From Patescibacteria group bacterium (lineage in GTDB: Bacteria; Patescibacteriota; Microgenomatia; Daviesbacterales; UBA10151): a stretch of DNA of 64,000 bases. Below are positions 1,827-64,000 of this stretch, in pieces; position 1 is the first letter of the stretch; each line of letters begins with the position of its first letter. Both the position numbers and the translations under genes were made by a program. A model generated the notes under the pieces. It saw only the letters and a list, made by a program, of their open reading frames with translations. It made no database searches and had not been told where the DNA came from. The stretch lies in assembly GCA_038064895.1 (NCBI GenBank), contig JBBTSA010000002.1, forward strand, positions 8,942 to 72,941. Direction: 5' to 3'.

Positions 1827-2180
1827 CTATCTCTTTAAAGAAGATATTAATGCATAAAGCATTTTTAGGATTTCTTCTAAAAGCAAAGCTGCTTTTTGAA
1901 TTTGGGTTTTTACATCTGGATAAAGTTTTTCAGCTAATATAAGTTGTGTTTCCAATTCGGCAGCTGATCCATTGGCAACTCTCAGGAATTGTATGTATTC
2001 TAGTTTATGTCCTCTTTTTGCTCCTTCAGCAATATTAGAAGGAATAGCGATTGCAGCTCTCTGCATTTGAGAAGATAAACCAAAAATTTCAGACTTGGGT
2101 AACTTATTAGTTATCTTGTATACCAGTTCCACAAGGTCCATTGATTTCTTCCATACCGTTAGATCTTTATGAGACTGCAT
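1827..2180 (-). CDS. Four-helix-bundle protein (TIGR02436 family, the family also found in 23S rRNA intervening sequences)
   Basis: 117 aa. The QMQRAAIAIPSNIAEGAKRGHKLEYIQFLRVANGSAAELETQL motif is characteristic of this family. Confidence 0.7.
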   Translation of the reverse strand: MQSHKDLTVWKKSMDLVELVYKITNKLPKSEIFGLSSQMQRAAIAIPSNIAEGAKRGHKLEYIQFLRVANGSAAELETQLILAEKLYPDVKTQIQKAALLLEEILKMLYALISSLKR

Positions 2181-9562: not shown

Positions 9563-10651
9563 CTACTCTTTGGTCACACAATAGGTTCCGCTACCCAGGT
9601 TTTGTACAAAACCTGTTATTTCCATCTTAAGTAATGTTGCTGAAACCACACCTGGCTGCAAAGTAGTCTTTCTACAAATCTCATCAATATGCATAGATTC
9701 ATTTTCCAAACATCCTAGGATTTTTCTTTCATCCTCTGTTAATTTTTCTCTTGATCCATGATCTATGACCCTTGGCACATTCCCAACTCCTAAATCATCC
9801 AATATATCCTTTGCATCAAAGACTGGCCTTGCACCTTCTTTTATAAGATCAATAGGACCCTTGGATAAGGATGAGGTTATAGGACCTGGAACTGCATAAA
9901 CATCTCTTCCTTGTTCCAATGCAAGCCTTGCTGTAATTAAGGATCCGGAATCTTCTGCTGCTTCGGTTACTAAAACTGCTTTTGAAAGTCCTGATATAAT
10001 TCTGTTTCTTGCAGGAAAGTTGCCTGCGAGAGATGGATAATCCGGAGGAAATTCAGAAATTACTGCTCCATGACCTTCGGTAATTTGATGAGCGAGTTCG
10101 GTATTTTCTGGAGGAAAGATTCTACTTACACCTCCACCTAAAATAGCTAGCGTTCTACCACTCTCTTCCAAGGCTATCTTATGGGCCTCCGTATCTACCC
10201 CACGGGCAAGACCGGAAATTATTGTCATCCCTGCCAAAATTAGTCCTCTTGTTAAATCATCTGTAACAACTTTCCCATAACCGGACATTTTTCTTGTACC
10301 AACCACAGCAATTGCTTTTTCATCTTGTGGCAAAATTTCACCTTTGTAGTATAAAACTATTGGCGGATCATAGATTTGAGCTAAAAGTTTAGGATAATCT
10401 TCATTAAAAACAGTAACCCAAGAAATTCCTGAATTTTTAATAGTTTCTGCATATTCTAATGGCTCCAGTTTTTTCCTAGTTTCTGCCAAAAGATCAACCA
10501 CTTGTTGTGGTATTCCAATTTTCCTGATTTCATTAACATTAGCTTCCCAGGCAAGTTTTGGATCCTTAAAATAATCCAAAATTGCCTTAAGCCTAATAGG
10601 CCCCAAACCGTCTATGGAATGTAGTGCTAAAAGATATGGGATATTTTTCAT
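9563..10651 (-). CDS. dprA: DNA processing protein DprA (Smf)
   Basis: 362 aa. Rossmann-like core GTRKMSGYGKVVTDDL...ISGLARGVDTEAHKIALE...GRTLAILGGGV is typical of DprA. Confidence 0.85.
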   Translation of the reverse strand: MKNIPYLLALHSIDGLGPIRLKAILDYFKDPKLAWEANVNEIRKIGIPQQVVDLLAETRKKLEPLEYAETIKNSGISWVTVFNEDYPKLLAQIYDPPIVLYYKGEILPQDEKAIAVVGTRKMSGYGKVVTDDLTRGLILAGMTIISGLARGVDTEAHKIALEESGRTLAILGGGVSRIFPPENTELAHQITEGHGAVISEFPPDYPSLAGNFPARNRIISGLSKAVLVTEAAEDSGSLITARLALEQGRDVYAVPGPITSSLSKGPIDLIKEGARPVFDAKDILDDLGVGNVPRVIDHGSREKLTEDERKILGCLENESMHIDEICRKTTLQPGVVSATLLKMEITGFVQNLGSGTYCVTKE

Positions 10652-10675: not shown

Positions 10676-10764
10676 ACATCATTACGAGGAGCGTTAGCGA
10701 CGAAGCAATCTCATCATTCAGGAGATTGCTTCCCCCGATTTCCATCGGGGTCGCAATGACGGGA
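10676..10764. repeat. Composite palindromic element (GTCATTGCGAG/CGAAGCAATC family), intergenic copy
   Basis: tcattacgagg...cgaagcaatctc[loop]gagattgcttc...ccccgatttccatcgggg...tcgcaatgacg. Terminal inverted arms plus two internal hairpins. Confidence 0.7.
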
Positions 10765-10767
10765 GGA

Positions 10768-12588
10768 TTACTCCCCCAAAGTTCTTGCTGATTCTGTGGC
10801 AATTGGATAAACATCTTTAATCAAATTATTTTTATCAGGGGAGAAGTACCACCTGTAAGCTTCTTTTGCAATTGGGGAAGCAACAGATGAACCCTCTCCT
10901 CCTCCTTCTATTAAAATAGTTAAAGCAATTTTTGGATCAGAGACCGGAGCATATGAAGTATACCAGGCATGAGTCCGGCCTTTGGGATCACCATATTCTG
11001 CTGTTCCTGTTTTACCTGCAGTTTCAATAGGAAAGCTAAAAAATGGCCAGGCTGTTCCTCCTTGCTTTGGAACCTTTTTAAGACCTTCCGCAATTTTTTC
11101 GATTTTCTGCTTTAACTGCAACTCTGATACTAATAAGTCTTCCTTAAACTGTTTTGTTATCACATTATCTCTTGTTACTTTGCTTAAAAGTTGAGGTCGC
11201 AGTATCTTCCCGTCTGATGCAATAAAAGAGGTTATACCTAAAATCTGAAGTGGTGTTGTAAGTATAAAACCCTGGCCAATCCCCATATGCAGTGTATCCC
11301 CAGGATACCAAACCTCCCCCAGCTTTTCTCTTTTCCACTTATCATCCGGAACAAGTCCTGCTTCTTCACCGGGAATGTCAATATTTAGTTTGGATCCAAG
11401 CTTAAGCCTTCTTGCCCAATCTGCTATGGCTTGCTCACCTATAGTTTGACTAACCCGGTAAAAATAGGTGTCGTTGGAGCGCTGTATAGCTTTCACTAAA
11501 TCCAAGGAGCCTTCTTTCTTACCGTATTGGTTAAAATACCAATTGGAAAATCTAAAAGTCCCCAGGTAAAATTCTCCGCTATCTTCGATTATGGTATCAG
11601 CACTGACTCCGGAGGAAAGTGCAGCCAGCGCAGTTACTACTTTAAAAGTTGAACCCGGTGGGTAAGTTCCGGCTATTACTCGATTTAAAATAGGAAAGGA
11701 AGGATCGGAAAGAGTTTCAAGGATTGTACCCTCATCGAAACCCAGTGTAAATATGTTTGGGTCAAATGATGGAAAAGAGAGTAGAGCCAAAATCTCACCA
11801 TTTTTCGGATCCATGGCAACAGCTGCTCCGCAACAAGCCCCTACTTTACTTATGGTATCTACAATAAGTTCATACAGCTTTTTTGAAAGATCCGAATCTA
11901 TTGTTAAGTAAATACTTTGTCCAGGTTTTGGCCCGTTGCGACGGAGTACCCTCACCTTTACTCCTTTGGAGTCGACTTCTATAACTTCGCCGCCATCTAC
12001 CCCTTTAAGCAAACTTTCATACTGTGCTTCAATACCCATCTTACCAATTCCATCTCCTCCAACATAACCTAAAACATGTGCAAGAATTTGACTCATTGGG
12101 TATGTCCTTATATTATCTACTTCTAAATCTTTTGCGCGGGGATCGTTTTTAACCTCAAGTTCCAAAGCCTCCTCCCTTGTAATCAGTCTTGTTTTTTTAA
12201 TCTCACTATCATTTAATCTGAAGGCAGGCGAAGAAGTTGCCAATATTTTTCCGTTTCTGTCATAAATTACCCCACGGGGTGCGTGAATAACTTTTATTTG
12301 AATTCTATTACTGTCTGCTAATTCTCTTGAGACTCCTCCTTCAACTATTTGGAGATGAAATATGCGTATGAAAATGATAAAAAATGCAATCAGGGTAACT
12401 GTTAAAAATATTGTTATTCTCCAAATGCTTACTTTGGATTCTTGTGGGCTTAAAGCATCAAAATTGGGTACAAGCAGGTCTTTCCAATCTTCCCAAAGGG
12501 CATTGTTTCTAAGCTTTGGGCCTTTAAAAGTTGCCTTTATAACTTCATCAGGAAAACCATATCCCATCCGACGCCTTGTCTTTACCAT
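10768..12588 (-). CDS. mrdA: Penicillin-binding protein 2 (peptidoglycan D,D-transpeptidase)
   Basis: 606 aa. N-terminal TM, STFK (PPGSTFKVV), SND and KTGTAE motifs. Located downstream of mreC-mreD. Confidence 0.85.
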   Translation of the reverse strand: MVKTRRRMGYGFPDEVIKATFKGPKLRNNALWEDWKDLLVPNFDALSPQESKVSIWRITIFLTVTLIAFFIIFIRIFHLQIVEGGVSRELADSNRIQIKVIHAPRGVIYDRNGKILATSSPAFRLNDSEIKKTRLITREEALELEVKNDPRAKDLEVDNIRTYPMSQILAHVLGYVGGDGIGKMGIEAQYESLLKGVDGGEVIEVDSKGVKVRVLRRNGPKPGQSIYLTIDSDLSKKLYELIVDTISKVGACCGAAVAMDPKNGEILALLSFPSFDPNIFTLGFDEGTILETLSDPSFPILNRVIAGTYPPGSTFKVVTALAALSSGVSADTIIEDSGEFYLGTFRFSNWYFNQYGKKEGSLDLVKAIQRSNDTYFYRVSQTIGEQAIADWARRLKLGSKLNIDIPGEEAGLVPDDKWKREKLGEVWYPGDTLHMGIGQGFILTTPLQILGITSFIASDGKILRPQLLSKVTRDNVITKQFKEDLLVSELQLKQKIEKIAEGLKKVPKQGGTAWPFFSFPIETAGKTGTAEYGDPKGRTHAWYTSYAPVSDPKIALTILIEGGGEGSSVASPIAKEAYRWYFSPDKNNLIKDVYPIATESARTLGE

Positions 12589-19599: not shown

Positions 19600-21678
19600 A
19601 TGCTGGATAGGATAATAATCTACTCCTTTTATCTACTTTTTTCCTTAACTCCCCTTTTTTGGACATCATTAAATTTTGAGCTTTTTGAATATAACAAGAT
19701 GCTTTTAGTTTATGGATTAACTGTTGTCATTGTAGGTGCATGGGTTATTAAATCCATAAATCAGAAATCATTCATTATAAATCGAACGCCGCTAGATATC
19801 CCTTTGCTACTTTTTCTTGGAGCAAATATATTATCCACAATATTTTCCATAGATACCCATACCTCAATTTGGGGATATTATTCGCGCTCTAATGGGGGTT
19901 TATTATCCATTATCTCCTACCTTTTATTATACTTTGCTTTTGTTTCAAATTTCCCAAAAGATAAGCTTAAAACCTTATTTAAATTTGCATTAGCATCAGG
20001 CCTAATTATTTCTATATGGGGGATTTTTGAACATTTCGGAGTATCACCATCATGCGTGATTTTAAGGGGTGAGGTTAATGCTTCTTGTTGGGTTCAGGAT
20101 GTCCAAGCAAGGGTCTTTGCAACACTGGGCCAGCCCAATTGGATGGCAGCCTACCTTTCCATGCTTATCTTCCCGGCTCTTTACTTTTTCTTAACTGAAA
20201 AAAACAAACTTCCTTATTACATACTACTTATTACATACTACTTAGCATTTACTTTCACCTATTCTAGGGGGCCTACACTAGGGTTGATAGGTGGGATGGT
20301 TGTTTCCATTCTACTGTCATCCCGACGAATGTCGGGATCCAATTCCGACTCATACATTTTTAATTGGATTCCTGCATTCGCAGGAATGACAAAACAAATG
20401 GTTGTTGTATTAATCTCATTCTTATTTGTCAATGTCCTTTTTGGTTCTGCTCTAACATCCTTCAGGCTTGTTTCCAAATTTGCTACTCCTGCAAGACCCT
20501 CTATTTCTCTCCCAGCTACACCTCAATCAGGTACCCAACTTGAGACCGGGGGCACAGAGTCCGGCCAAATTAGGTTTATTGTTTGGAGAGGAGCCTTGGA
20601 TATATTTAAACACTACCCAATTTTTGGTTCAGGTTTGGAAACCTTTGCCTACTCCTATTATCAATTCAGACTAGCTGCCCACAATTTGGTGTCAGAATGG
20701 GATTTTTTATACAACAAAGCCCATAATGAGTATCTTAATTACCTGGCAACAACTGGAGTTGTGGGATTTGGAACTTATACGTTGGTGATTGGAACCTTTT
20801 TGGTATGGAGCATGAAATATCTCGTCATTGCGAGGAACGAAGTGACGAAGCAATCTGTTTCATTAGCAAGATCGCCACGCCATGTACCAGAGCGGTACAT
20901 GGCTCGCGATGACGTTTTGTTTGTTGTTGCACTTCTTGCCTCCTACATCTCCTACCTTATCTATAACTTCTTCCTCTTTTCAGTTGTCATAATTGCACTC
21001 TTTTTCTATCTTTTCCCTGCTCTTGCCTTTGTTGCAACAGAATCTTTAAAAGTTTTCAGGGTACAGGGCAGCGTTTTGAGTTGGATATATAGAAGACCAA
21101 TGTATACAAGAATTACTAAAGGGCTAATCATACTTATTACCATATACTTACTATTTACTGTCTTTAAAATCTGGTATGCAGATACTTTATTTGCCAAGGG
21201 TGAAAAAGCATCAGATTCAGGAAATCCAGGAAGAGCATATAACTTATTATCTTTGGCAACATCAATAAATCCTTCTGAACCCTTTTTTAGATCCGAGCTT
21301 GCTTATTCTGCTGCTCAAGCTGCTGCAGCCTTAAAAGATGAGGATGCTTCTCGTTCTGCAAGCTTAAAAGATGAAGCAGAGGTAGAAATGTTAAAAGTTC
21401 TAAAATCCAATCCTAATAATGTCTCGTTCTTAAGAAGTGCAATAAGAACCTATTTTGAGTTGTCAGTTTTTGGTAAGGCATATACACAAAAAACGCTTGA
21501 GGCTATAAATAGGGCAACTGGACTTGCACCAACTGATCCAAAGCTTTACTACAACAAGGCTCTGGTTTTGGAATCTGCAGATAAAAAGGATGAATCTTTA
21601 GAGGCTTTAAAAAAGGCATTGGAGCTTAAACCTAATTATTTGGAAGCCAAGGAGCATCTGGATGAAATCAATCGCTAA
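19600..21678 (+). CDS. O-antigen ligase-like polytopic membrane protein with C-terminal TPR repeats, containing two in-frame palindromic-element insertions
   Basis: 692 aa, more than 10 TM helices. AHNEYLNYLATTGVVGF (Wzy_C-type motif). C-terminal TPR-like repeats (KALELKPNYLEAKEHL). Segments SSRRMSGS...IPAFAGMT and VIARNEVTKQS are encoded by repeat elements. Confidence 0.65.
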   Translation: MLDRIIIYSFYLLFSLTPLFWTSLNFELFEYNKMLLVYGLTVVIVGAWVIKSINQKSFIINRTPLDIPLLLFLGANILSTIFSIDTHTSIWGYYSRSNGGLLSIISYLLLYFAFVSNFPKDKLKTLFKFALASGLIISIWGIFEHFGVSPSCVILRGEVNASCWVQDVQARVFATLGQPNWMAAYLSMLIFPALYFFLTEKNKLPYYILLITYYLAFTFTYSRGPTLGLIGGMVVSILLSSRRMSGSNSDSYIFNWIPAFAGMTKQMVVVLISFLFVNVLFGSALTSFRLVSKFATPARPSISLPATPQSGTQLETGGTESGQIRFIVWRGALDIFKHYPIFGSGLETFAYSYYQFRLAAHNLVSEWDFLYNKAHNEYLNYLATTGVVGFGTYTLVIGTFLVWSMKYLVIARNEVTKQSVSLARSPRHVPERYMARDDVLFVVALLASYISYLIYNFFLFSVVIIALFFYLFPALAFVATESLKVFRVQGSVLSWIYRRPMYTRITKGLIILITIYLLFTVFKIWYADTLFAKGEKASDSGNPGRAYNLLSLATSINPSEPFFRSELAYSAAQAAAALKDEDASRSASLKDEAEVEMLKVLKSNPNNVSFLRSAIRTYFELSVFGKAYTQKTLEAINRATGLAPTDPKLYYNKALVLESADKKDESLEALKKALELKPNYLEAKEHLDEINR
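20316..20390. repeat. Palindromic element with terminal inverted repeats GTCATCCC/GGAATGAC, in-frame inside the O-antigen ligase-like CDS
   Basis: gtcatcccgacgaatgtcgggatcc...tcctgcattcgcaggaatgac, with two internal hairpins. Translates to SSRRMSGS...IPAFAGMT inside the ORF. Confidence 0.7.
20824..20911. repeat. Composite palindromic element (GTCATTGCGAG...CGAAGCAATC...CTCGCGATGAC), in-frame inside the same CDS
   Basis: gtcattgcgaggaacgaagtgacgaagcaatc...ccatgtaccagagcggtacatgg...ctcgcgatgac. Encodes LVIARNEVTKQSVSLARSPRHVPERYMARDD. Confidence 0.7.
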
Positions 21679-21942: not shown

Positions 21943-22263
21943 ATGGATATTGTAAAAGCACCTAATCCAGCTTTAAAGGTTCAAACCAAATTGGTTAAAA
22001 AGATCACACCGGGTTTGATTCAAACTCTCAATAATATGATTAAGCTTACCAAAACTTTTAAGGATCCTGAGGGAGTAGGTTTGGCAGCTACTCAGGTGGG
22101 TTTGGATCAATGCTTCTTCGTAGCCAGGCTGCATGATTCAAAACATTCTCCTCCATCAGAACCTGGACAACGTCAAAAAAGATGGAAAAATTACAAAAAA
22201 GATTTTATATCTATTATAAATCCACAAATTTTATCTTTTTCCAAGAAAACCAAAATTACCTAA
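21943..22263 (+). pseudogene. Truncated 5' duplicate of peptide deformylase gene (first ~100 codons only)
   Basis: Translation MDIVKAPNPALKVQTKLVKK...GVGLAATQVGLDQCFFVARLHDSK is ~75% identical to residues 1-100 of def at 23183. Lacks the EGCLS and HEXXH motifs and ends after SFSKKTKIT. Confidence 0.7.
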
Positions 22264-22274
22264 GGGAGATTAAA

Positions 22275-23090
22275 CTAGATACCGCAAACAAGAACTCTAC
22301 CACTGGCATCAAAAAAAGAATCATCTCCATACCCACTAGCTTCAGAATACAAGCTATCGCCAGAATAAAAGTATGGTTGTTCTTGTTCTTTCCCCATTTC
22401 CAAGAGGAGAGCACAACCATTAGATTGATGCAGACCGCTTGTCGCATCACTACCAATTAAGAAAAAATGGTGAAATTCACTGGTCTTAAGATCTGGTCTT
22501 GTAATTGACAAGCCCAAGCCATCCCAATGATTTCCTAATCGCAGATGATCTCCTAAGTATCCACCCCAAATCAATTTTCTTAAGGCTAGGCAATTGACAT
22601 ACCTAGATAAATACCTCCCTTCGAGCAAATCTGTCACATACTCAGGTTCATGATGTTCACCGCGAGCCTGCAATTGTAGTGTTAAAAGACGTTCTTTATT
22701 ATCCCTAATTTCAGTATTGTATTTATCACCTACATGTAACCAGGTACCATATGATTGTTCTGGAAGATTGATACCCCTAGGATCCTGCAATTCTTCTATA
22801 TCTATAGTGGCAAAGGGATAAAGCGGAGGTCGATTAATCTTAAAACCTACAGCCTCAGCTAGTTGCCAAACAGTAACTTGTTCAAATTTTGGAACAAGAA
22901 TAGGTGTATCAACTCCAAGTTCATCAAACTCAGGTTTTCTAGTTGGGAAACCAGCCGGTAAGACTTTAAAACAATCATCCTTATTCATCCCTAAGACTCT
23001 GGTGACACCTTCAAATATCAATTCCCTTTGTATATCAAATTCTTCATTAAGAGGAATATTAGGGTATCTATTTTCTGCATCAATAACCAT
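22275..23090 (-). CDS. Hypothetical protein (271 aa), GC-richer than flanks, inserted between def fragment and intact def
   Basis: Long ORF with His/Glu-rich segments (GEHHEPEY, FHHFFLIGSD) and no family recognised. Composition visibly differs from neighbours. Confidence 0.5.
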   Translation of the reverse strand: MVIDAENRYPNIPLNEEFDIQRELIFEGVTRVLGMNKDDCFKVLPAGFPTRKPEFDELGVDTPILVPKFEQVTVWQLAEAVGFKINRPPLYPFATIDIEELQDPRGINLPEQSYGTWLHVGDKYNTEIRDNKERLLTLQLQARGEHHEPEYVTDLLEGRYLSRYVNCLALRKLIWGGYLGDHLRLGNHWDGLGLSITRPDLKTSEFHHFFLIGSDATSGLHQSNGCALLLEMGKEQEQPYFYSGDSLYSEASGYGDDSFFDASGRVLVCGI

Positions 23091-23182: not shown

Positions 23183-23764
23183 ATGTTACAAGTAATCCAT
23201 GCACCTGATCCAAGACTTAAAATTCAAACAAAGTTTGTAAAGAAAATAAATGGCGGTCTTTTAGCTACCTTAAAGGACATGATCAAACTTACTAAAACCT
23301 TTAAAGATCCGGAGGGAGTTGGTTTGGCAGCAACACAGGTTGGGCTTGATGAACGCTTTTTTGTAGCCAGATTACATGATTCTAAACAAATCCCTCCATC
23401 AAATCCAACCCAGCGAAGGGAAAGGTGGAAAAACTATAAAAAAGACTTTGTTGCAATTATCAATCCTAAAATTTTGTCATATTCTAAGCGTATCAAGCCT
23501 TATTTTGAGGGATGTTTATCCATTCCGACAATATGGGGTCAGGTTAAACGTCATACATCCGTAAAAGTATCTTATCAGGATGAAAAGGGTAATAATATTA
23601 AAAAAACCTTAAAAGGTATTCCTGCTTGGATATTTCAACATGAAGTTGATCATCTGGATGGGATACTGTTCACAGAAAGAGTCTTGCAGCAAAAAGGGGA
23701 GTTTTATAAATTCAAAGGCAAAGATAAAACAGGAACGGATGTATTTGAAGAAATTACATTATGA
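23183..23764 (+). CDS. def: Peptide deformylase
   Basis: 193 aa. GVGLAATQVG, EGCLSIP and QHEVDHLDG motifs. Confidence 0.9.
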   Translation: MLQVIHAPDPRLKIQTKFVKKINGGLLATLKDMIKLTKTFKDPEGVGLAATQVGLDERFFVARLHDSKQIPPSNPTQRRERWKNYKKDFVAIINPKILSYSKRIKPYFEGCLSIPTIWGQVKRHTSVKVSYQDEKGNNIKKTLKGIPAWIFQHEVDHLDGILFTERVLQQKGEFYKFKGKDKTGTDVFEEITL

Positions 23765-24687
23765 AAACACAACATCCACAAATTATTCATCCCGGTCAGA
23801 CTGTTTTCTTAAGAGAAGACTTAGATGTCAAAAAGTATCTGGTGAAAATACCTAGGCAGAATATAGAGATTGTATTTTTTGGATCAGATAGCTGGTCTAT
23901 CCATGTTCTTAAAACATTAGAAGATAATTTTGATGTTAAAGCTGTAGTTACTGCACCAGATTCTGCTGTAGCTAACCATTTTAAAGGCCCTGTACTCACT
24001 CCAGACACACTTGATGAGGCTTTTCTTACTACCAACTACCAACTACTAACTACTAACTTATTTATAGTAGCATCATATGGGAAAATCATACCAAAAGCCA
24101 TCTTAAATATTCCAAAATACGGTGCCCTAAATGTCCATCCATCTCTTTTACCCAAATATAGAGGTCCATCCCCCGTGCCTGCAACTATTTTAAATGGAGA
24201 CAAAGTTACAGGGGTAACTATTATTAAAATGGATGAGAAAATGGACCATGGACCTATTGTTGCAGTAAAGAAGATTAGATTAACAGGACGGGAAATTTTC
24301 CCGGATTTGATCAATAAATTGTTTCAACTTGGAGGAGAACTTCTAGTTAAAATTATCCCAGATTATATTACGGGAAAAATAAAACCTCTTGGACAAAATC
24401 AAGCAATGGCTGTATTTTGTCCAAGACTTAGCAGAAAAAGTGGCTATTTTGATATTGAAAAACCTCCATCCCCTGAAATGTTGGACAGGATGATTCGGGC
24501 CTACTATCCTTGGCCGGGAGTTTGGACCCGCTTTCGCCCTTCGGGTTCCAGTGGGCAAGCCCGCATTGTAAAATTCTTACCTGGAGGAATGCTACAAATG
24601 GAAGGCAAAAAGCCAATATCTTTTAAAGACTTCCTAAACGGCTACCCGGATTTTCTTTTAAAAAGTATTACTCTTGACAAAAAGTAA
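23761..24687 (+). CDS. fmt: Methionyl-tRNA formyltransferase
   Basis: 308 aa. Formyltransferase N-domain (NVHPSLLPKYRGPSPV) plus C-terminal domain. Overlaps def stop (ATGA). Confidence 0.9.
   Translation: MKTQHPQIIHPGQTVFLREDLDVKKYLVKIPRQNIEIVFFGSDSWSIHVLKTLEDNFDVKAVVTAPDSAVANHFKGPVLTPDTLDEAFLTTNYQLLTTNLFIVASYGKIIPKAILNIPKYGALNVHPSLLPKYRGPSPVPATILNGDKVTGVTIIKMDEKMDHGPIVAVKKIRLTGREIFPDLINKLFQLGGELLVKIIPDYITGKIKPLGQNQAMAVFCPRLSRKSGYFDIEKPPSPEMLDRMIRAYYPWPGVWTRFRPSGSSGQARIVKFLPGGMLQMEGKKPISFKDFLNGYPDFLLKSITLDKK
24625..24655 (+). repeat. 31-bp direct repeat AAAGACTTCCTAAACGGCTACCCGGATTTTC (copy 1, inside fmt 3' end)
   Basis: Perfect 31-mer repeated at 25344-25374. The two copies bracket the AbrB/PIN cassette. 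Confidence 0.85.
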
Positions 24688-24711: not shown

Positions 24712-24972
24712 ATGTATAATGTATACACTTCCACTTTAACTTCTAAAGGTCAGGCTACAATTCCAGCTCCTGTTAGACGTAGGCTTGGCTTTAGACCAGG
24801 GCAAAAAATTATCTTTGCCGAAAAAGGTGGTAACATCTACATAAGCTCAGCTGTGGATTTATCAGAACTTAGGGGCTCTTTAAAACCTAAAGTTAAAACT
24901 AAATATAGCGATAAAAAGGCTGATGAAACTATTGGTAGAATGTTTGCTGCTGAATATGCCAAAACTCGTTGA
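24712..24972 (+). CDS. AbrB/SpoVT/MazE-type antitoxin
   Basis: 86 aa. TSKGQATIPAPVRRRLGFRPGQKI is the swapped-hairpin AbrB-type signature. Overlaps the downstream PIN gene. Confidence 0.6.
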   Translation: MYNVYTSTLTSKGQATIPAPVRRRLGFRPGQKIIFAEKGGNIYISSAVDLSELRGSLKPKVKTKYSDKKADETIGRMFAAEYAKTR

Positions 24973-25345
24973 CACGAATTTAATAGTCCGTTTTCTACTT
25001 AATGATAATCCGCAACAAGCCTTAGCTTCCGAAAAAGTTTTTAAACAGTCTTCCGATTTGGTTATTACTGATATTGCTGTCGCAGAAACAGTTTGGACTC
25101 TTCAATCCTTCTACGGCTTCTCAAGACAAGAAATCGTTGAAAAAATTTTTAAATTTCTCCAGTCTAAAAACTTCATTTGTAATCAAGAACTCCTCTTTAA
25201 CAGTCTTTTCTTATACCTAAACCATAATATTTCTTTTGTAGATGCTTATTTTGCAGCTTACGCGGAAATTGAAAAATTAGAAGGTATTTATTCTTTTGAT
25301 GAGGGGTTGGATAAAATTAAAACTATAAAAAGATTCAAACCCTAA
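24956..25345 (+). CDS. PIN-domain toxin (VapC-like)
   Basis: Starts MPKLVDTNLIVRFLLND (PIN N-terminal Asp motif). The track ORF 24923 is an upstream extension. Overlaps the antitoxin gene by 17 nt. Confidence 0.65.
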   Translation: MPKLVDTNLIVRFLLNDNPQQALASEKVFKQSSDLVITDIAVAETVWTLQSFYGFSRQEIVEKIFKFLQSKNFICNQELLFNSLFLYLNHNISFVDAYFAAYAEIEKLEGIYSFDEGLDKIKTIKRFKP

Positions 25346-26601
25346 AGACTTCCTAAACGGCTACCCGGATTTTCCAATACAACACATCGCCTAGAAGCTC
25401 TTGCTCTTTCTATCTCCCCAGCAGCAATTAAACGCTGTCTAGACTTTTTAACCTTATCTTCTGTCGCATCAAGCAAATCTGCAATTTGTACATTAGAAAG
25501 TTTTTCACCTGGGTTCATTAACGCAGCTACTTTTGTATCACGCTCATTAATCACCTCAGGCAGAGGTTGTCTCCTTTCCACTTTCTTTTTAGGTAGTAAA
25601 CGTCTACTGATAGAATTTTTAACAGAAGATTCTAAGACGTCAAGCAAATCTGCAATTTGAGGTACGGAATATGTACCTGATCTTCTCAAACTTTCTACTT
25701 CCACATCAAGTACAAGGTTGGCGGTACTAACTGGTCTGCCTGCTGTTCTCCTTTCTACTCTCCCCTCAGCAATTAGGTGCTGCAGAGAATATCTGACAGA
25801 CCCTAAATTCCTACTGACTTTTACTGCAATCTGCGGGTTAGAATAACCTTCTCTCCTTAAATCTATTATATTCCTATCATTTGGTATGATTCCAAAATAA
25901 TGCTCAAGTTCTGTTGCTTCAGATGTATCAAAATAGTAATAATGCCCCAGATTTCTTCTCCTGTGGTGCACATTAAATCCGTAGTCACGTAAATGCTGAA
26001 AAAGCTCTGCCAGAGATTTTGGGGATTTTCTCCCCAAATCATGAAGTACTAAACGAAGTGGCTTAAACGGAGGACTCCAAAGTTTTGGCCAGGACGGCTC
26101 TCTATCAGTCTCCTGGACTGGAATTTCGGGCAATTCAGGAATGGGGAACCCTGCTGCCATTAAAGCTCTGCGTCTTGGCGACATTAAATATGGCTTATGC
26201 CCAAATTTGATTGCTACTTCCTTTGAAGTGGCTCCTGCTAAAAAATCACGCACTATCAGAATAACCGAATCCATTCTCCATCCATGTTCAGGAAAAATTT
26301 TTCTCACAACAGCTACTAAAGGTGCCCTCTCAACTTGCCTTACTCTCAAACCAACTGATTGTCTAATATTTCCTGTTGCTCTAGCAATTTCACTTAAGCT
26401 ATACCCATTAGCATACAAAAAACTCTCTGTCTCTCTTGTAGTAACGCAGGCTGTTCTTAAACGCATTAGCTTCTCATGCAATGGCATCCAACCACTAATA
26501 GTAGTATTAATACCCAAGTGGGCACCTAGCTTTGCATAAGGAGACTCGCCTATTAGGTCAAGTCTAAATGAGTTAGCGTCTACTTGTTCTGCTTGAACCA
26601 T
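25342..26601 (-). CDS. Protein with four tandem sigma-70 region-4/LuxR-like HTH repeats, GC-richer
   Basis: 419 aa. Repeated motifs YSLSEIARATGNIRQSVGLR, YSNPQIAVKVSRNLGSVRYSL, YSVPQIADLLDVLESSVKNSI, LSNVQIADLLDATEDKVKKSR. The 3' end lies inside the 31-bp repeat copy 2. Confidence 0.5.
   Translation of the reverse strand: MVQAEQVDANSFRLDLIGESPYAKLGAHLGINTTISGWMPLHEKLMRLRTACVTTRETESFLYANGYSLSEIARATGNIRQSVGLRVRQVERAPLVAVVRKIFPEHGWRMDSVILIVRDFLAGATSKEVAIKFGHKPYLMSPRRRALMAAGFPIPELPEIPVQETDREPSWPKLWSPPFKPLRLVLHDLGRKSPKSLAELFQHLRDYGFNVHHRRRNLGHYYYFDTSEATELEHYFGIIPNDRNIIDLRREGYSNPQIAVKVSRNLGSVRYSLQHLIAEGRVERRTAGRPVSTANLVLDVEVESLRRSGTYSVPQIADLLDVLESSVKNSISRRLLPKKKVERRQPLPEVINERDTKVAALMNPGEKLSNVQIADLLDATEDKVKKSRQRLIAAGEIERARASRRCVVLENPGSRLGSL
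25344..25374 (+). repeat. 31-bp direct repeat AAAGACTTCCTAAACGGCTACCCGGATTTTC (copy 2)
   Basis: Identical to 24625-24655. Encodes the C-terminus (ENPGSRLGSL) of the minus-strand HTH-repeat gene. Confidence 0.85.
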
Positions 26602-27491: not shown

Positions 27492-27574
27492 TTTCTTACT
27501 TGACATTTTTTTATCTTAATATTACTATTAAATTATCCTAAAGGACATTTTGTAGATGGCCTAAAGGATTGATC

Positions 27575-27615
27575 CTGAGCGATCCCGAGCTTGTCGAGGG
27601 AGAGCGAAGGACTGC
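27575..27615. repeat. Degenerate copy of the palindromic element core (CCCGAGCTTGTCGAGGG)
   Basis: gagcgatcccgagcttgtcgagggagagcgaag shares the CCCGAGCTTGTCGAGGG palindrome with the element at 38358-38445. Confidence 0.5.
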
Positions 27616-27848: not shown

Positions 27849-27920
27849 GCCTCCTTAGCTTAGTGGTAAAGCAGCGGTTTTGTAAACCGTCGACGGCAGT
27901 CCGATCCTGCCAGGAGGCTC
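27849..27920 (+). tRNA. tRNA-Thr (anticodon UGU)
   Basis: Manual fold. Acceptor gcctcct/aggaggc, D stem gctt/aagc, anticodon stem gcggt/accgt with loop tttgtaa (U33, UGU, A37), T stem ggcag/ctgcc. Confidence 0.65.
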
Positions 27921-27928
27921 AAACTTAA

Positions 27929-28000
27929 GCCGACGTAGCTCAGTAGCAGAGCAACTCCATGGTAAGGAGTAGGTCGTGGGTGCAGTCCCCACCGTCGGCT
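27929..28000 (+). tRNA. tRNA-Thr (anticodon GGU)
   Basis: Manual fold. Acceptor gccgacg/cgtcggc, D stem gctc/gagc, anticodon stem actcc/ggagt with loop atggtaa (GGU), T stem gtggg/cccac. Confidence 0.65.
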
Positions 28001-28024
28001 CCCATATGATATACTAATCCCTCT

Positions 28025-28195
28025 ATGGCTAAAGGTAACAGAATTTTAATAGGTCTTGTTTGTTCTGTTTGCAAAAACAGGAATTATATAACTGAAAAGA
28101 ATAAGCTGGAACAAAAAGAAAAGCTTGTTTTGAGTAAATTTTGTAAACACTGTAGAAAATCAACGGAGCACCAAGAAACCTCCAAATTGGACTAA
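28025..28195 (+). CDS. rpmG: 50S ribosomal protein L33
   Basis: 56-aa translation MAKGNRILIGLVCSVCKNRNYITEKNK...KFCKHCRK with four Zn-ribbon cysteines. Below the 60-aa track cutoff. Confidence 0.8.
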   Translation: MAKGNRILIGLVCSVCKNRNYITEKNKLEQKEKLVLSKFCKHCRKSTEHQETSKLD

Positions 28196-28243
28196 TTATC
28201 TAATTTGCTACGATTTTTGCTTTCGGGTACAATTGAAAAGTCT

Positions 28244-28317
28244 AGGGGCGTCGGTCAGTGGTAGGCCCTTGCTCTCCAAAAGCAATGACAGAGGTTCAAT
28301 TCCTCTCGCCCCTGCCA
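28244..28317 (+). tRNA. tRNA-Trp (anticodon CCA)
   Basis: Manual fold. Acceptor aggggcg/cgcccct, D stem ggtc/ggcc, anticodon stem ttgct/agcaa with loop ctccaaa (CCA), T stem agagg/cctct with loop ttcaatt. 3' CCA encoded. Confidence 0.8.
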
Positions 28318-62758: not shown

Positions 62759-63520
62759 TCACACTTTGTCATCTCCATGAAAGTCTTTCGAATTCCTTAT
62801 CAAATACCACACATATTTTAGAAGGGCAAATTGTCTTTTTATTCTCCAGGGCTGCAATATTAGCCTGAACAACCATTCAAATCCTAAATTCCTTATCCAG
62901 ATTGGTGCTCTTTGCACTCTACCTGATAGATAATCAAATGCCCCGCCAACACCCATGGCTACCTTAACATCCAAGTTTGGTAAATTTTTTGCAATCCATT
63001 TTTCCTGTTTTGGTGGACCAAAAGCTACAAAAAGAATATCTACCTCATCGTCATTGCGATCCCGCACCATATGGTGCGGGAGTGGCAATCTTTTATTAAC
63101 AATGACATTCCCATTGTTATCAACCTCTCCACCATTTTCAGCGAAAACAATGTTAAGTTTTGGGTATTTTCGCAACAAGCACTTAGCACACCTTTCTGCT
63201 ACCCCGTCCCTAGCTCCTAAAAGGCCTATTGTGAAGCCCTTTTCGGAAGACAGCTTAATTAGCTCCTCCATAAAGTCTATCCCGGGAATATGACAAACTA
63301 TATCACCTGTTAATCTTAATCCCTTTCCATCAGGAATAGCCAGATCTGCTTTATTGATAATATCCAGAATCCTCTTATCACTCCGTGCCATCATTACAAT
63401 CTCGGGATTAGGGGTAACAATGTAGTGCTTTTTGCCATTTTCCAACCATTTCTCCACCACTTTTATAGCCTGTTCCATATTTACATCATCAATTTTTACT
63501 CCAAGAACATACTTTTTCAT
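62759..63520 (-). CDS. WecB/TagA/CpsF-family glycosyltransferase with in-frame palindromic-element insertion
   Basis: MKKYVLGVKIDDVNMEQAIKVV...HYIVTPNPEIVMMA...GFEWLFRLILQPWRIKRQF are TagA/WecG motifs. The PLPHHMVRDRND segment is encoded by the repeat at 63050-63090. Confidence 0.7.
   Translation of the reverse strand: MKKYVLGVKIDDVNMEQAIKVVEKWLENGKKHYIVTPNPEIVMMARSDKRILDIINKADLAIPDGKGLRLTGDIVCHIPGIDFMEELIKLSSEKGFTIGLLGARDGVAERCAKCLLRKYPKLNIVFAENGGEVDNNGNVIVNKRLPLPHHMVRDRNDDEVDILFVAFGPPKQEKWIAKNLPNLDVKVAMGVGGAFDYLSGRVQRAPIWIRNLGFEWLFRLILQPWRIKRQFALLKYVWYLIRNSKDFHGDDKV
63050..63090. repeat. Short-form palindromic element GTCATTGCGA-[CCCGCACCATATGGTGCGGG]-AGTGGCAATC inside the TagA-like CDS
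   Basis: Family arms plus a perfect 20-bp GC palindrome. In-frame in the CDS. Confidence 0.7.
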
Positions 63521-64000
63521 TTTGCTGCTTCCTCCAAAATTTTTAGGGTTTCTTTCGCAGTTTTCTCCCAAGAGAATCTTTTTACATTCTCAAATCCGGC
63601 TTTAACGATTTGAGATTTGACATTTGAGATTTGACATTTTCCCATACCTTTAACTATATCATCTACAGAATACGGATTTACATATATTGCCCCTTTCCCG
63701 GCCACTTCAGGCATGGAGGATATGTTAGAAGTAACAACCGGACATCCACAGGCTTGAGCTTCCAAAATAGGCAGGCCAAAACCTTCAAAAAGGGAGGGAA
63801 ATGTTAAAGCTATGGCCCCCGAATACAAAGCCGGCAGATCTTTATCAGGCACATAGCCTAAGAACTTCACTTTATCCTCTATTCCAAGCTCCTTTGGCAA
63901 TCTATATATTTCATCTGCTAGCCAGCCTTTGGAACCTGCTATGACTAAATGAATGTCATTGCGAGGGTTCGAAAAACCCGAAGCAATCTTTTTTTGAGAG
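63517..64000 (-). CDS. Glycosyltransferase family 1 (GT4-like), C-terminal part (N-terminus beyond window end), with in-frame palindromic element
   Basis: EGFGLPILEAQACGCPVVTSNISSMPEV (EX7E region) and HLVIAGSKGW. The frame stays open to the window edge and passes through the repeat at 63955-63988 (…IASGFSNPRNDIH…). Confidence 0.7.
   Translation of the reverse strand, partial: SQKKIASGFSNPRNDIHLVIAGSKGWLADEIYRLPKELGIEDKVKFLGYVPDKDLPALYSGAIALTFPSLFEGFGLPILEAQACGCPVVTSNISSMPEVAGKGAIYVNPYSVDDIVKGMGKCQISNVKSQIVKAGFENVKRFSWEKTAKETLKILEEAAK
63955..63988. repeat. Short-form palindromic element GTCATTGCGAG-GGTTCGAAAAACCCG-AAGCAATC inside the GT1 CDS
   Basis: Canonical arms of the family with a small GC hairpin core. 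In-frame. Confidence 0.7.

Follow-up and report, generated by a model that had tools for sequence, protein, structure and literature searches.

The window analysed here is a 64-kb stretch of the genome of a Patescibacteria group bacterium (contig JBBTSA010000002.1, positions 8942-72941), with a G+C content of 38%. It carries seven copies of short, tagged palindromic repeats. Six of the seven lie in or beside genes for envelope biogenesis, in a part of the window that is itself an envelope-gene cluster. The Wzy_C/TPR protein, whose gene hosts two copies, has its best homologues in Candidatus Daviesbacteria (Microgenomates, Candidate Phyla Radiation (CPR)/Patescibacteria). Exact protein matches assign the sequence to groundwater assemblies from Hainich (well H51) and to the NCBI MAG GCA_964366195.1. 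The genes that contain or adjoin the copies, assigned with Pfam (Rfam returned three tRNAs for the window and nothing else), are the following.

9563-10651, minus strand: dprA, one flank of the intergenic copy
10768-12588, minus strand: PBP2 gene, the other flank of the intergenic copy
19600-21678: Wzy_C + TPR gene
27849-28314: tRNA cluster
38192/38447-40576: PBP1A gene
62759-63571, minus strand: WecG/TagA glycosyltransferase gene
running off the 3' end of the window: GT1/GT4 gene, complete in locus L120 (8082-9227)

The copies belong to several subtypes, which are described below.

10678-10760, intergenic: type-I inverted dimer, 83 nt, 8 nt downstream of the PBP2 stop and upstream of dprA
20316-20390, plus strand: CGTC-1/NTS-type inverted heterodimer, 75 nt (25 codons), in the Wzy_C/TPR gene
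20824-20913, plus strand: type-I inverted dimer, 90 nt (30 codons), in the second inter-helix loop of the Wzy_C gene
27569-27615, plus strand: decayed single unit of a third subtype, GTC-ATCCT-GAG...CGAA-AGGAT-C, non-coding, upstream of the tRNA cluster
38359-38445, plus strand: type-I inverted dimer, 87 nt, ending two bases before the ATG at 38447
63050-63106, minus strand: decayed type-I dimer, 57 nt (19 codons), in frame in the WecG/TagA gene
63955-63988, minus strand: type-I single unit, GTCATTGCGAG-GGTTCGAAAAACC-CGAAGCAATC, in frame in the GT4 gene

An earlier note on this DNA had described seven dispersed palindromic copies, and all of them were found at or near the positions it gave. 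The left arm GTCATTGCGAG has seven matches in the window when at most one mismatch is allowed (10750-, 20824+, 20903-, 38359+, 38435-, 63050+ and 63955+, the sign denoting the strand). In 100 dinucleotide shuffles the matches averaged 0.40, with no shuffle above 2 and hence none at seven, which rules out a chance origin. Folded as single-stranded DNA, the four long forms (at 10678, 20316, 20824 and 38359) have z = -5.9, -5.3, -3.4 and -5.1, and the two short forms (TagA and GT4) z = -4.9 and -2.8; an unbiased census of GC-rich perfect hairpins placed the strongest ones within the reported elements. The TagA, GT4 and intergenic copies recur in independently assembled contigs of replicate samples, the intergenic one (in L123) with a single-nucleotide difference, and an assembly artefact is thereby excluded. 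General repeat finders run on the whole window missed the family because of the hairpin indels that separate its copies; it was picked up by motif and hairpin scans.

The type-I unit reads [C/T]GTC-ATTGC-GAG-[variable core]-CGAA-GCAAT-CT, where ATTGC pairs with GCAAT and the core, in this genome, is mostly a GC-rich hairpin. The long form consists of two type-I units, inverted, with the tags outermost, and has two possible folds, one with two hairpins side by side and one with an outer stem of 11 bp around three hairpins. Inverted dimers with outermost tags and two differing hairpins account for five of the seven copies, in agreement with the terminal inverted copy and extra hairpins that had been noticed in the long forms. 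The dimer at 38359-38445 has perfect 11-nt terminal inverted repeats GTCATTGCGAG/CTCGCAATGAC. Nine of the ten unit heads in the window are [CT]GTCAT, the exception being CATCAT at 10676.

The intergenic dimer at 10678-10760 has an outer stem CATTACGA/TCGCAATG, a central stem GAAGCAATCTC/GAGATTGCTTC and a third hairpin CCCCGAT/ATCGGGG (DNA fold -23.3 kcal/mol). Its length is not a multiple of three, whereas the intragenic dimers of 75, 90 and 57 nt are each divisible by three. Its position directly upstream of dprA, a transformation gene, is a single case and may be coincidence. The dimer at 20824-20913 is in frame and encodes VIARNEVTKQSVSLARSPRHVPERYMARDD; the base preceding it is C, so that the tag is CGTC. 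In the TagA gene, the sense strand reads GTCATTG-TTAATAAA-AGATTGCC-[hairpin]-TCGCAATGAC and encodes VIVNKRLPLPHHMVRDRND; its right unit has been preserved, with an apical hairpin of 9 bp, and the left one has decayed to GTCATTG. This copy had been placed at 63050-63090; it is present and in frame as described, and proves to be a decayed dimer that extends to 63106. The GT4 copy encodes KKIASGFSNPRND.

Two copies depart from this pattern. The heterodimer at 20316-20390, in frame between two predicted membrane helices of the Wzy_C/TPR protein, encodes SSRRMSGSNSDSYIFNWIPAFAGMT and contains neither GTCATTGCGAG nor CGAAGCAATC; it has only the GTCAT...ATGAC ends in common with the other subfamily. 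Its first unit is (T)GTC-ATCCCGAC-GAAT-GTCGGGAT-CCA and its second, on the other strand, (T)GTC-ATTCCTGC-GAAT-GCAGGAAT-CCA, both with an 8-bp stem starting AT, a 4-nt loop and a CCA tail. The unit at 27569-27615 has the basal stem ATCCT/AGGAT, no fold signal (z = -0.1) and a head TTGATCCTGAG with two mismatches that is by itself not significant; its kinship is recognized because it shares the 17-mer CCCGAGCTTGTCGAGGG with 38372-38388, the first hairpin of the copy at 38359. The earlier view of a degenerate, intergenic copy here was correct, and the idea of one family with one arm pair holds for the type-I copies only, these two belonging to a CGTC-1/NTS-type and a third subtype.

Four copies are securely intragenic and in frame. 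A fifth had been placed inside a coding sequence, over the PBP1A start. Two PBP1A products are on record, one of 782 aa (from 38228, through the element) and one of 709 aa (NCBI MEK7616483.1, starting at 38447), and N-terminal intragenic copies of CGTC-tagged repeats are frequently annotation artefacts (PMC3733652). Most likely, the 38359-38445 copy is a 5' leader in a divergent intergenic region, just upstream of the true PBP1A start. The conserved arms are free of stop codons in five of the six reading frames. Since the window is about 84% coding by a crude count of open reading frames (ORFs), and the genome is given as about 84-90% coding, four or five genic copies of seven represent no enrichment.

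Taken together, the seven copies are probably CGTC-tagged palindromic repeats of the superfamily resembling repetitive extragenic palindromic (REP) sequences, which includes Neisseria dRS3/NTS and the Rickettsia palindromic elements (RPE) RPE-4 and RPE-6; they would be linked to the nuclease Ssn, with long forms that lack its gene. The CGTC-tagged REP superfamily was defined by Di Nocera, De Gregorio & Rocco in 2013 (BMC Genomics 14:522; PMC3733652). Its units have a CGTC or TGTC tag, an 8-9 bp stem starting A-T, T-A, a 4-5 nt loop and a tail that is mostly CCA, and most are arranged as inverted dimers, many of them heterodimers, whose spacers are structured (PMC3733652). Intragenic copies are known, over half of them dimers or groups encoding 20-30 residues; CGTC-1 is identified with Neisseria dRS3 and R. 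conorii RPE-6 and CGTC-4 with RPE-4, and the repeats were concluded to have "no dedicated transposase" (PMC3733652).

The 20316-20390 dimer fits the CGTC-1 description point by point, and its second unit agrees with the Neisseria NTS consensus (PMC11893778) at 23 of 28 positions, including a compensatory change of a stem pair from C:G to T:A. A search by frame only, [CT]GTCAT-N16-ATCC[AT], over the window and all collected loci gave 28 distinct sequences. In 14 of these all six unconstrained pairs are formed (0.4% of shuffles), with nine different stems. Covariation on the 28-sequence alignment is 0.333 against 0.157 for shuffled alignments (0 of 500 as high), and 78.6% of cells are paired, against 25-43% with the partner slid. 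Compared by description, the window units resemble the CGTC families in the tag, the AT-initial stem, the short tail (CCA in the 20316 dimer), the inverted dimers and the intragenic copies. Type I differs from the four described families, with their perfect 8-9 bp stems and 4-5 nt loops, in having a 5-bp basal stem, an internal loop, a variable apex and a CT(C) tail.

RPEs, reportedly described by Ogata et al. in 2000, are likewise palindromic repeats in frame in genes of a small genome, where they add tolerated protein loops. RPE-1 is longer, about 100-150 bp. It is not CGTC-tagged, and only RPE-4 and RPE-6 belong to the CGTC superfamily (PMC3733652). The link between the window units and RPEs rests on the equation of RPE-4 and RPE-6 with CGTC-4 and CGTC-1 by Di Nocera et al.; a type-I unit is also present in a Rickettsiaceae genome (Ca. 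Tisiphia, L088). The relationship to RPEs is thus closer than the analogy proposed earlier, and the repeats do not constitute a new family. REP/REPIN elements with RAYT transposases (Nunvar 2010 and Bertels & Rainey 2011, cited by PMC3733652 and PMC11893778) are also short tagged palindromes, with the inverted doublet as the likely mobile unit, and flank a single-copy gene for an enzyme that recognizes single-stranded DNA hairpins. They differ, on the same authority, in having a GTAG instead of a CGTC tag and an HUH tyrosine transposase instead of a GIY-YIG nuclease; REPIN mobility is demonstrated, whereas mobility of the CGTC-type repeats here would be a matter of inference.

The connection with Ssn comes from the loci of its gene. 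Chenal et al. (2025, Nat Commun 16:2388; PMC11893778) found that NTS, a longer form of dRS3 (CGTCATTCCCGCGMAVGCGGGAATCYRG), and related motifs flank ssn, a small GIY-YIG nuclease gene (cd10448-type), and also lie dispersed over those genomes. The nuclease cleaves single-stranded DNA beside the hairpin, the layout NTS-ssn-NTS is reminiscent of an insertion sequence, and in N. meningitidis transformation is modulated by the NTS/Ssn pair (PMC11893778). The repeats studied here have in common with NTS and its related motifs the oriented head CGTCAT, the flanking of a single-domain GIY-YIG gene of about 95 aa and the scattering in the same genomes. The NTS/Ssn paper makes no mention of intragenic or in-frame copies or of CPR hosts (PMC11893778).

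Clustering of the ORFs in 119 8-kb loci around type-I units revealed no recurrent neighbour gene. As a single ssn in each genome is far outnumbered by the repeats, the association test was then reversed and started from ssn genes. Each of the eight independent ssn loci inspected, three from Patescibacteria, has CGTC-type units directly on both sides of the gene. In five loci (L045, L128, L130, L131 and L132) the units are GTC[AG]TTGCGAG...CGAAGCAA[TC]C, in the order unit(+)-ssn-unit(-). In the Planctomycetota locus L045, a 96-aa GIY-YIG gene (Pfam E = 6e-18), with more than 8000 homologues of its protein in the database, fits exactly between ...CGAAGCAATCTC and GAGATTGCTTCG...CTCGCAATGAC; where this gene would be, the element at 10678 in the window has a spacer of 9 nt. 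More generally, the long forms of the window have the termini of an ssn locus, with 9-20 nt replacing the gene of about 300 nt, and with the same termini around a short spacer they can be regarded as gene-less derivatives, similar to miniature inverted-repeat transposable elements.

Among Microgenomates-related loci, L179 has an ssn identical to an NCBI protein of a "Patescibacteria group bacterium", flanked by perfect NTS-type units; in two further Patescibacteria loci (L342 and L344) ssn is bracketed by NTS/CGTC-type units. A Doudnabacteria locus (L013) was rejected as an ssn locus: its GIY-YIG ORF is different, interrupted and not bracketed by units. This ORF is adjoined by an element of about 360 nt with the type-I termini GTCATTGCGAG...CTCGCAATGAC and tandem repeats of about 32 nt inside (L013 4089-4352 and 4566-4925). 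In other organisms ssn occupies intergenic gaps of defence or conjugation clusters, for example between restriction-modification genes (L128, L130) or within a TraC-like/PrgI/T4SS-pilin cluster (L344/L347). In L179 and L342 from Patescibacteria, it immediately follows a WecG/TagA gene, a member of the family in which the window has an in-frame repeat.

The type-I arms are widespread. Scanning species-representative genomes for the exact pattern GTCATTGCGAG-N6-36-CGAAGCAATC yielded at least 119 stretches across most bacterial phyla. The hosts include Alpha-, Gamma- and Deltaproteobacteria, Rickettsiales, Chloroflexota, Bacteroidota, Cyanobacteria, Planctomycetota, Zixibacteria, Ignavibacteria, Omnitrophota, Helicobacter, Sporomusa and several CPR lineages. 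Of 181 type-I units taken from other genomes, 56% have C and 35% have T immediately before GTC, which corresponds to the CGTC/TGTC tag. Exact type-I units are also found in at least 120 viral or proviral contigs of IMG/VR (L222-L341), with up to six each; no Ssn homologue was found in 120 viral loci (1.07 Mb). Phages may carry the repeats between hosts, or the viral contigs may include host DNA.

The behaviour of the intragenic copies was followed in orthologous genes. In an alignment of the Wzy protein with 119 orthologues, from which an identical protein (P0001) was excluded, both element sites are hypervariable loops between hydrophobic helices, and many orthologues have a short unrelated sequence there. 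Recognizable element peptides are present in 26 orthologues at site 1 and in 6 at site 2, and represent several subtypes: SSRR...AGMT, SFPRKRES...SGMT, CHPEG...LRMT, ...SPQND, VIAR...ARND, VILSEAKNL and VIPS... At the DNA level, both sites are empty in L125, whereas in L126 site 1 holds the element of the window and site 2 is empty. In L127 a different element occupies site 1, GTCATTCC...ATGAC, which starts at the identical CTG|TCAT position, and site 2 holds the element of the window with the third hairpin GCCCCttcGGGGC instead of GCCATGTACCagagcGGTACATGGC, 12 nt shorter and with the frame kept.

The elements are far more alike than the genes around them. Between the window and L126, the rest of the Wzy gene is 67.6% identical and third codon positions 41%, against 69 of 75 positions in the site-1 element, where the differences are confined to the loops. 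Between the window and L127 the corresponding values are 70.1% and 47%, against 72 of 78 in the aligned part of the site-2 element. Orthologous elements thus differ in loops or by exchange of a whole hairpin, a pattern that would point either to strong constraint on sequence and structure or to renewal and homogenization from other copies. The L127 hairpin GCCCCTTCGGGGC is also found in the TagA element of another organism (L144), which fits an exchange among copies.

A comparison of TagA and GT4 across 80 related metagenome loci gave a similar picture. The insert is missing from canonical, more distant TagA proteins. Among the closest Microgenomates orthologues, full type-I dimers are found in L144, L146 and L148 and NTS-type dimers in L142, L143 and L154, all starting at one and the same codon; others (L150, L152) are empty. 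Over the element sites as a whole, the identical codon can hold a type-I, NTS-type or type-III dimer in different lineages. For GT4, 16 of 17 orthologues have no recognizable element-type peptide in the variable loop, and the remaining one (L158) has a different, GTCAT-type element. An in-frame palindromic repeat that is present in some orthologues and absent from others, as known from RPEs, is therefore seen at both Wzy sites, in TagA and in GT4. These alignments bear out the earlier proposal that the elements add peptide loops to membrane and glycosyltransferase proteins: orthologues either lack the segment or have it with the same palindromic DNA, and the counter-case, the same peptides encoded by non-palindromic DNA, is not what they show.

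That Ssn mobilizes or converts the copies is what we infer from their architecture and from the pattern of conservation. The copies would be spread, or kept alike, by a process acting on the hairpin in single-stranded DNA, either Ssn-dependent cleavage followed by copying or repair from another element, or transposition. In a genome with so high a coding density most landing sites would be genic, and the survivors would be those with a length that is a multiple of three, a stop-free frame in use and a tolerant loop as the site. The outcome would be variable peptide loops of 12-30 residues in envelope-biogenesis proteins, with certain loops acting as hot spots at which element types replace one another. 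In its specific form, the proposal is that loops of Microgenomates/CPR envelope proteins (Wzy-like ligase, TagA and GT4) are hot spots at which CGTC/Ssn-type cassettes are inserted, swapped between subtypes and remodelled hairpin by hairpin with the frame kept; at present we hold this to be rather unlikely.

Several observations weigh against an Ssn-linked, CGTC-type origin and mobility of the copies. Chenal et al. demonstrated cleavage and an effect on transformation only, and not movement or copying of the repeats (PMC11893778). Neither the 64-kb window nor the 10 kb past its 3' end (L120) yielded an ssn or any other GIY-YIG gene, and no target-site duplication was seen when filled and empty sites were compared. 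The published SRM expression, HGTCWYN(0-2)YYVSBRHN(0-5)WNVSBRGN(0-2)RNCYNB, has no match among the window units (0 in the window, 0.12 expected), the NTS-like unit missing it only by the compensatory T:A stem pair. Type-I units do not have the perfect 8-9 bp stem, and in many genomes their core is not a hairpin. Finally, the high likeness of orthologous elements could also reflect selection on an RNA or protein feature.

Some of the same evidence would suit selfish, RPE-like palindromes that have no functional tie to Ssn, were moved by a lost transposase, a RAYT or a phage recombinase, and persist as relics in loops, an explanation to which we assign a low probability. It would account for the nuclease gene not being found in 74 kb of this genome and for the decayed copies (27569-27615, the left half of the TagA copy and the head at 10678); Di Nocera et al. 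found no dedicated transposase for CGTC repeats (PMC3733652), and Neisseria dRS3 is a target of a phage recombinase (PMC11893778). It is at odds with the bracketing of ssn by units in eight of eight loci, three of them from Patescibacteria, and with elements that are 92% identical although third codon positions of the host genes are near saturation.

A somewhat less probable alternative is that the repeats serve the host, either as RNA hairpins that stabilize or terminate transcripts or, together with Ssn, by restricting the recombination of incoming single-stranded DNA in transformation, the in-frame copies being a by-product. The stems covary, the intergenic copy 8 nt past a stop codon is in a typical REP position, and the NTS/Ssn effect on transformation in N. 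meningitidis (PMC11893778) may be set beside the copy directly upstream of dprA, although competence of this organism is a supposition. The association of six copies with envelope-biogenesis genes would also agree with a host function; seven copies are, however, too few for a bias in strand or gene class to be judged, in a region that is an envelope-gene cluster anyway. No T-run follows the hairpins, and the presence of different element types at one codon across lineages is left unexplained. That the inserts are ordinary coding sequence kept for their peptides, with incidental palindromes, is very improbable: they are in frame, stop-free and Arg/Lys-rich, as in short inter-helix loops, but the same DNA occurs at the non-coding sites 10678 and 38359, the genes read the arms in different frames and strands (VIAR..., SSRR...GMT, ...RND), identical arms exist in genomes of unrelated phyla and most orthologues have no insert, so that selection on the peptides can be set aside.

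Other repeats and genes were noticed around the window. Over 210 nt, a truncated ORF resembling peptide deformylase shares 75% identity with the start of a full def about 1.2 kb downstream (repeat D1; 21943-22263, 22275-23090 and 23183-23764); a 271-aa minus-strand ORF lies between the two, and the arrangement resembles a partial duplication on either side of an inserted gene. Two exact copies of a 32-nt direct repeat (24624-24655 and 25343-25374) surround a segment of about 720 nt with an ORF of 140 aa (24923-25345). The final 47 nt or so of PBP1A (40529-40575) are repeated about 390 nt downstream (40916-40962) with 85% identity, and a hairpin at the 3' end of this gene, GCCCCGATtcaATCGGGGC (40526-40544), resembles the third hairpin of the intergenic element (10733-10750) and has no CGTC arms. 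There are also two small genes with 23S_rRNA_IVP/bAvd-type Pfam matches, an RHH + PIN pair near the 5' end of the window and a 543-aa large serine recombinase just outside it (regions: window 1827-2180; L120 4453-5046 and 2719-4350, past the 3' end).

The repeat superfamily and its intragenic copies have been known since 2013 and the partner nuclease Ssn since 2025 (PMC11893778). The literature search on CPR and palindromic elements returned nothing specific. New in the present analysis are the CPR host, the tie of the type-I arms to one Ssn clade, and hot-spot loops with subtype turnover and hairpin replacement. The class of CGTC-tagged REPs and Ssn-associated motifs is thereby extended to CPR, whose very compact genomes lead to repeats in frame within genes, and the arm pair GTCATTGCGAG...CGAAGCAATC, widespread in most bacterial phyla and in viral contigs, is linked to one Ssn clade. 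This accounts for many odd peptides in databases, a large class (VIARxExTKQS, IPAFAGMT and SFPRKRES are examples), and for some over-extended gene calls such as the 782-aa PBP1A. Subtype turnover at one codon, exchange of hairpins and conservation above that of synonymous sites together provide a testable handle on the copying of the repeats, a question open since 2013. If the turnover is driven by Ssn cleavage and repair from other copies, the pair of repeat and nuclease would be a built-in generator of peptide-loop diversity in the cell-surface machinery, and also the mobilization mechanism that the CGTC repeat superfamily has lacked.

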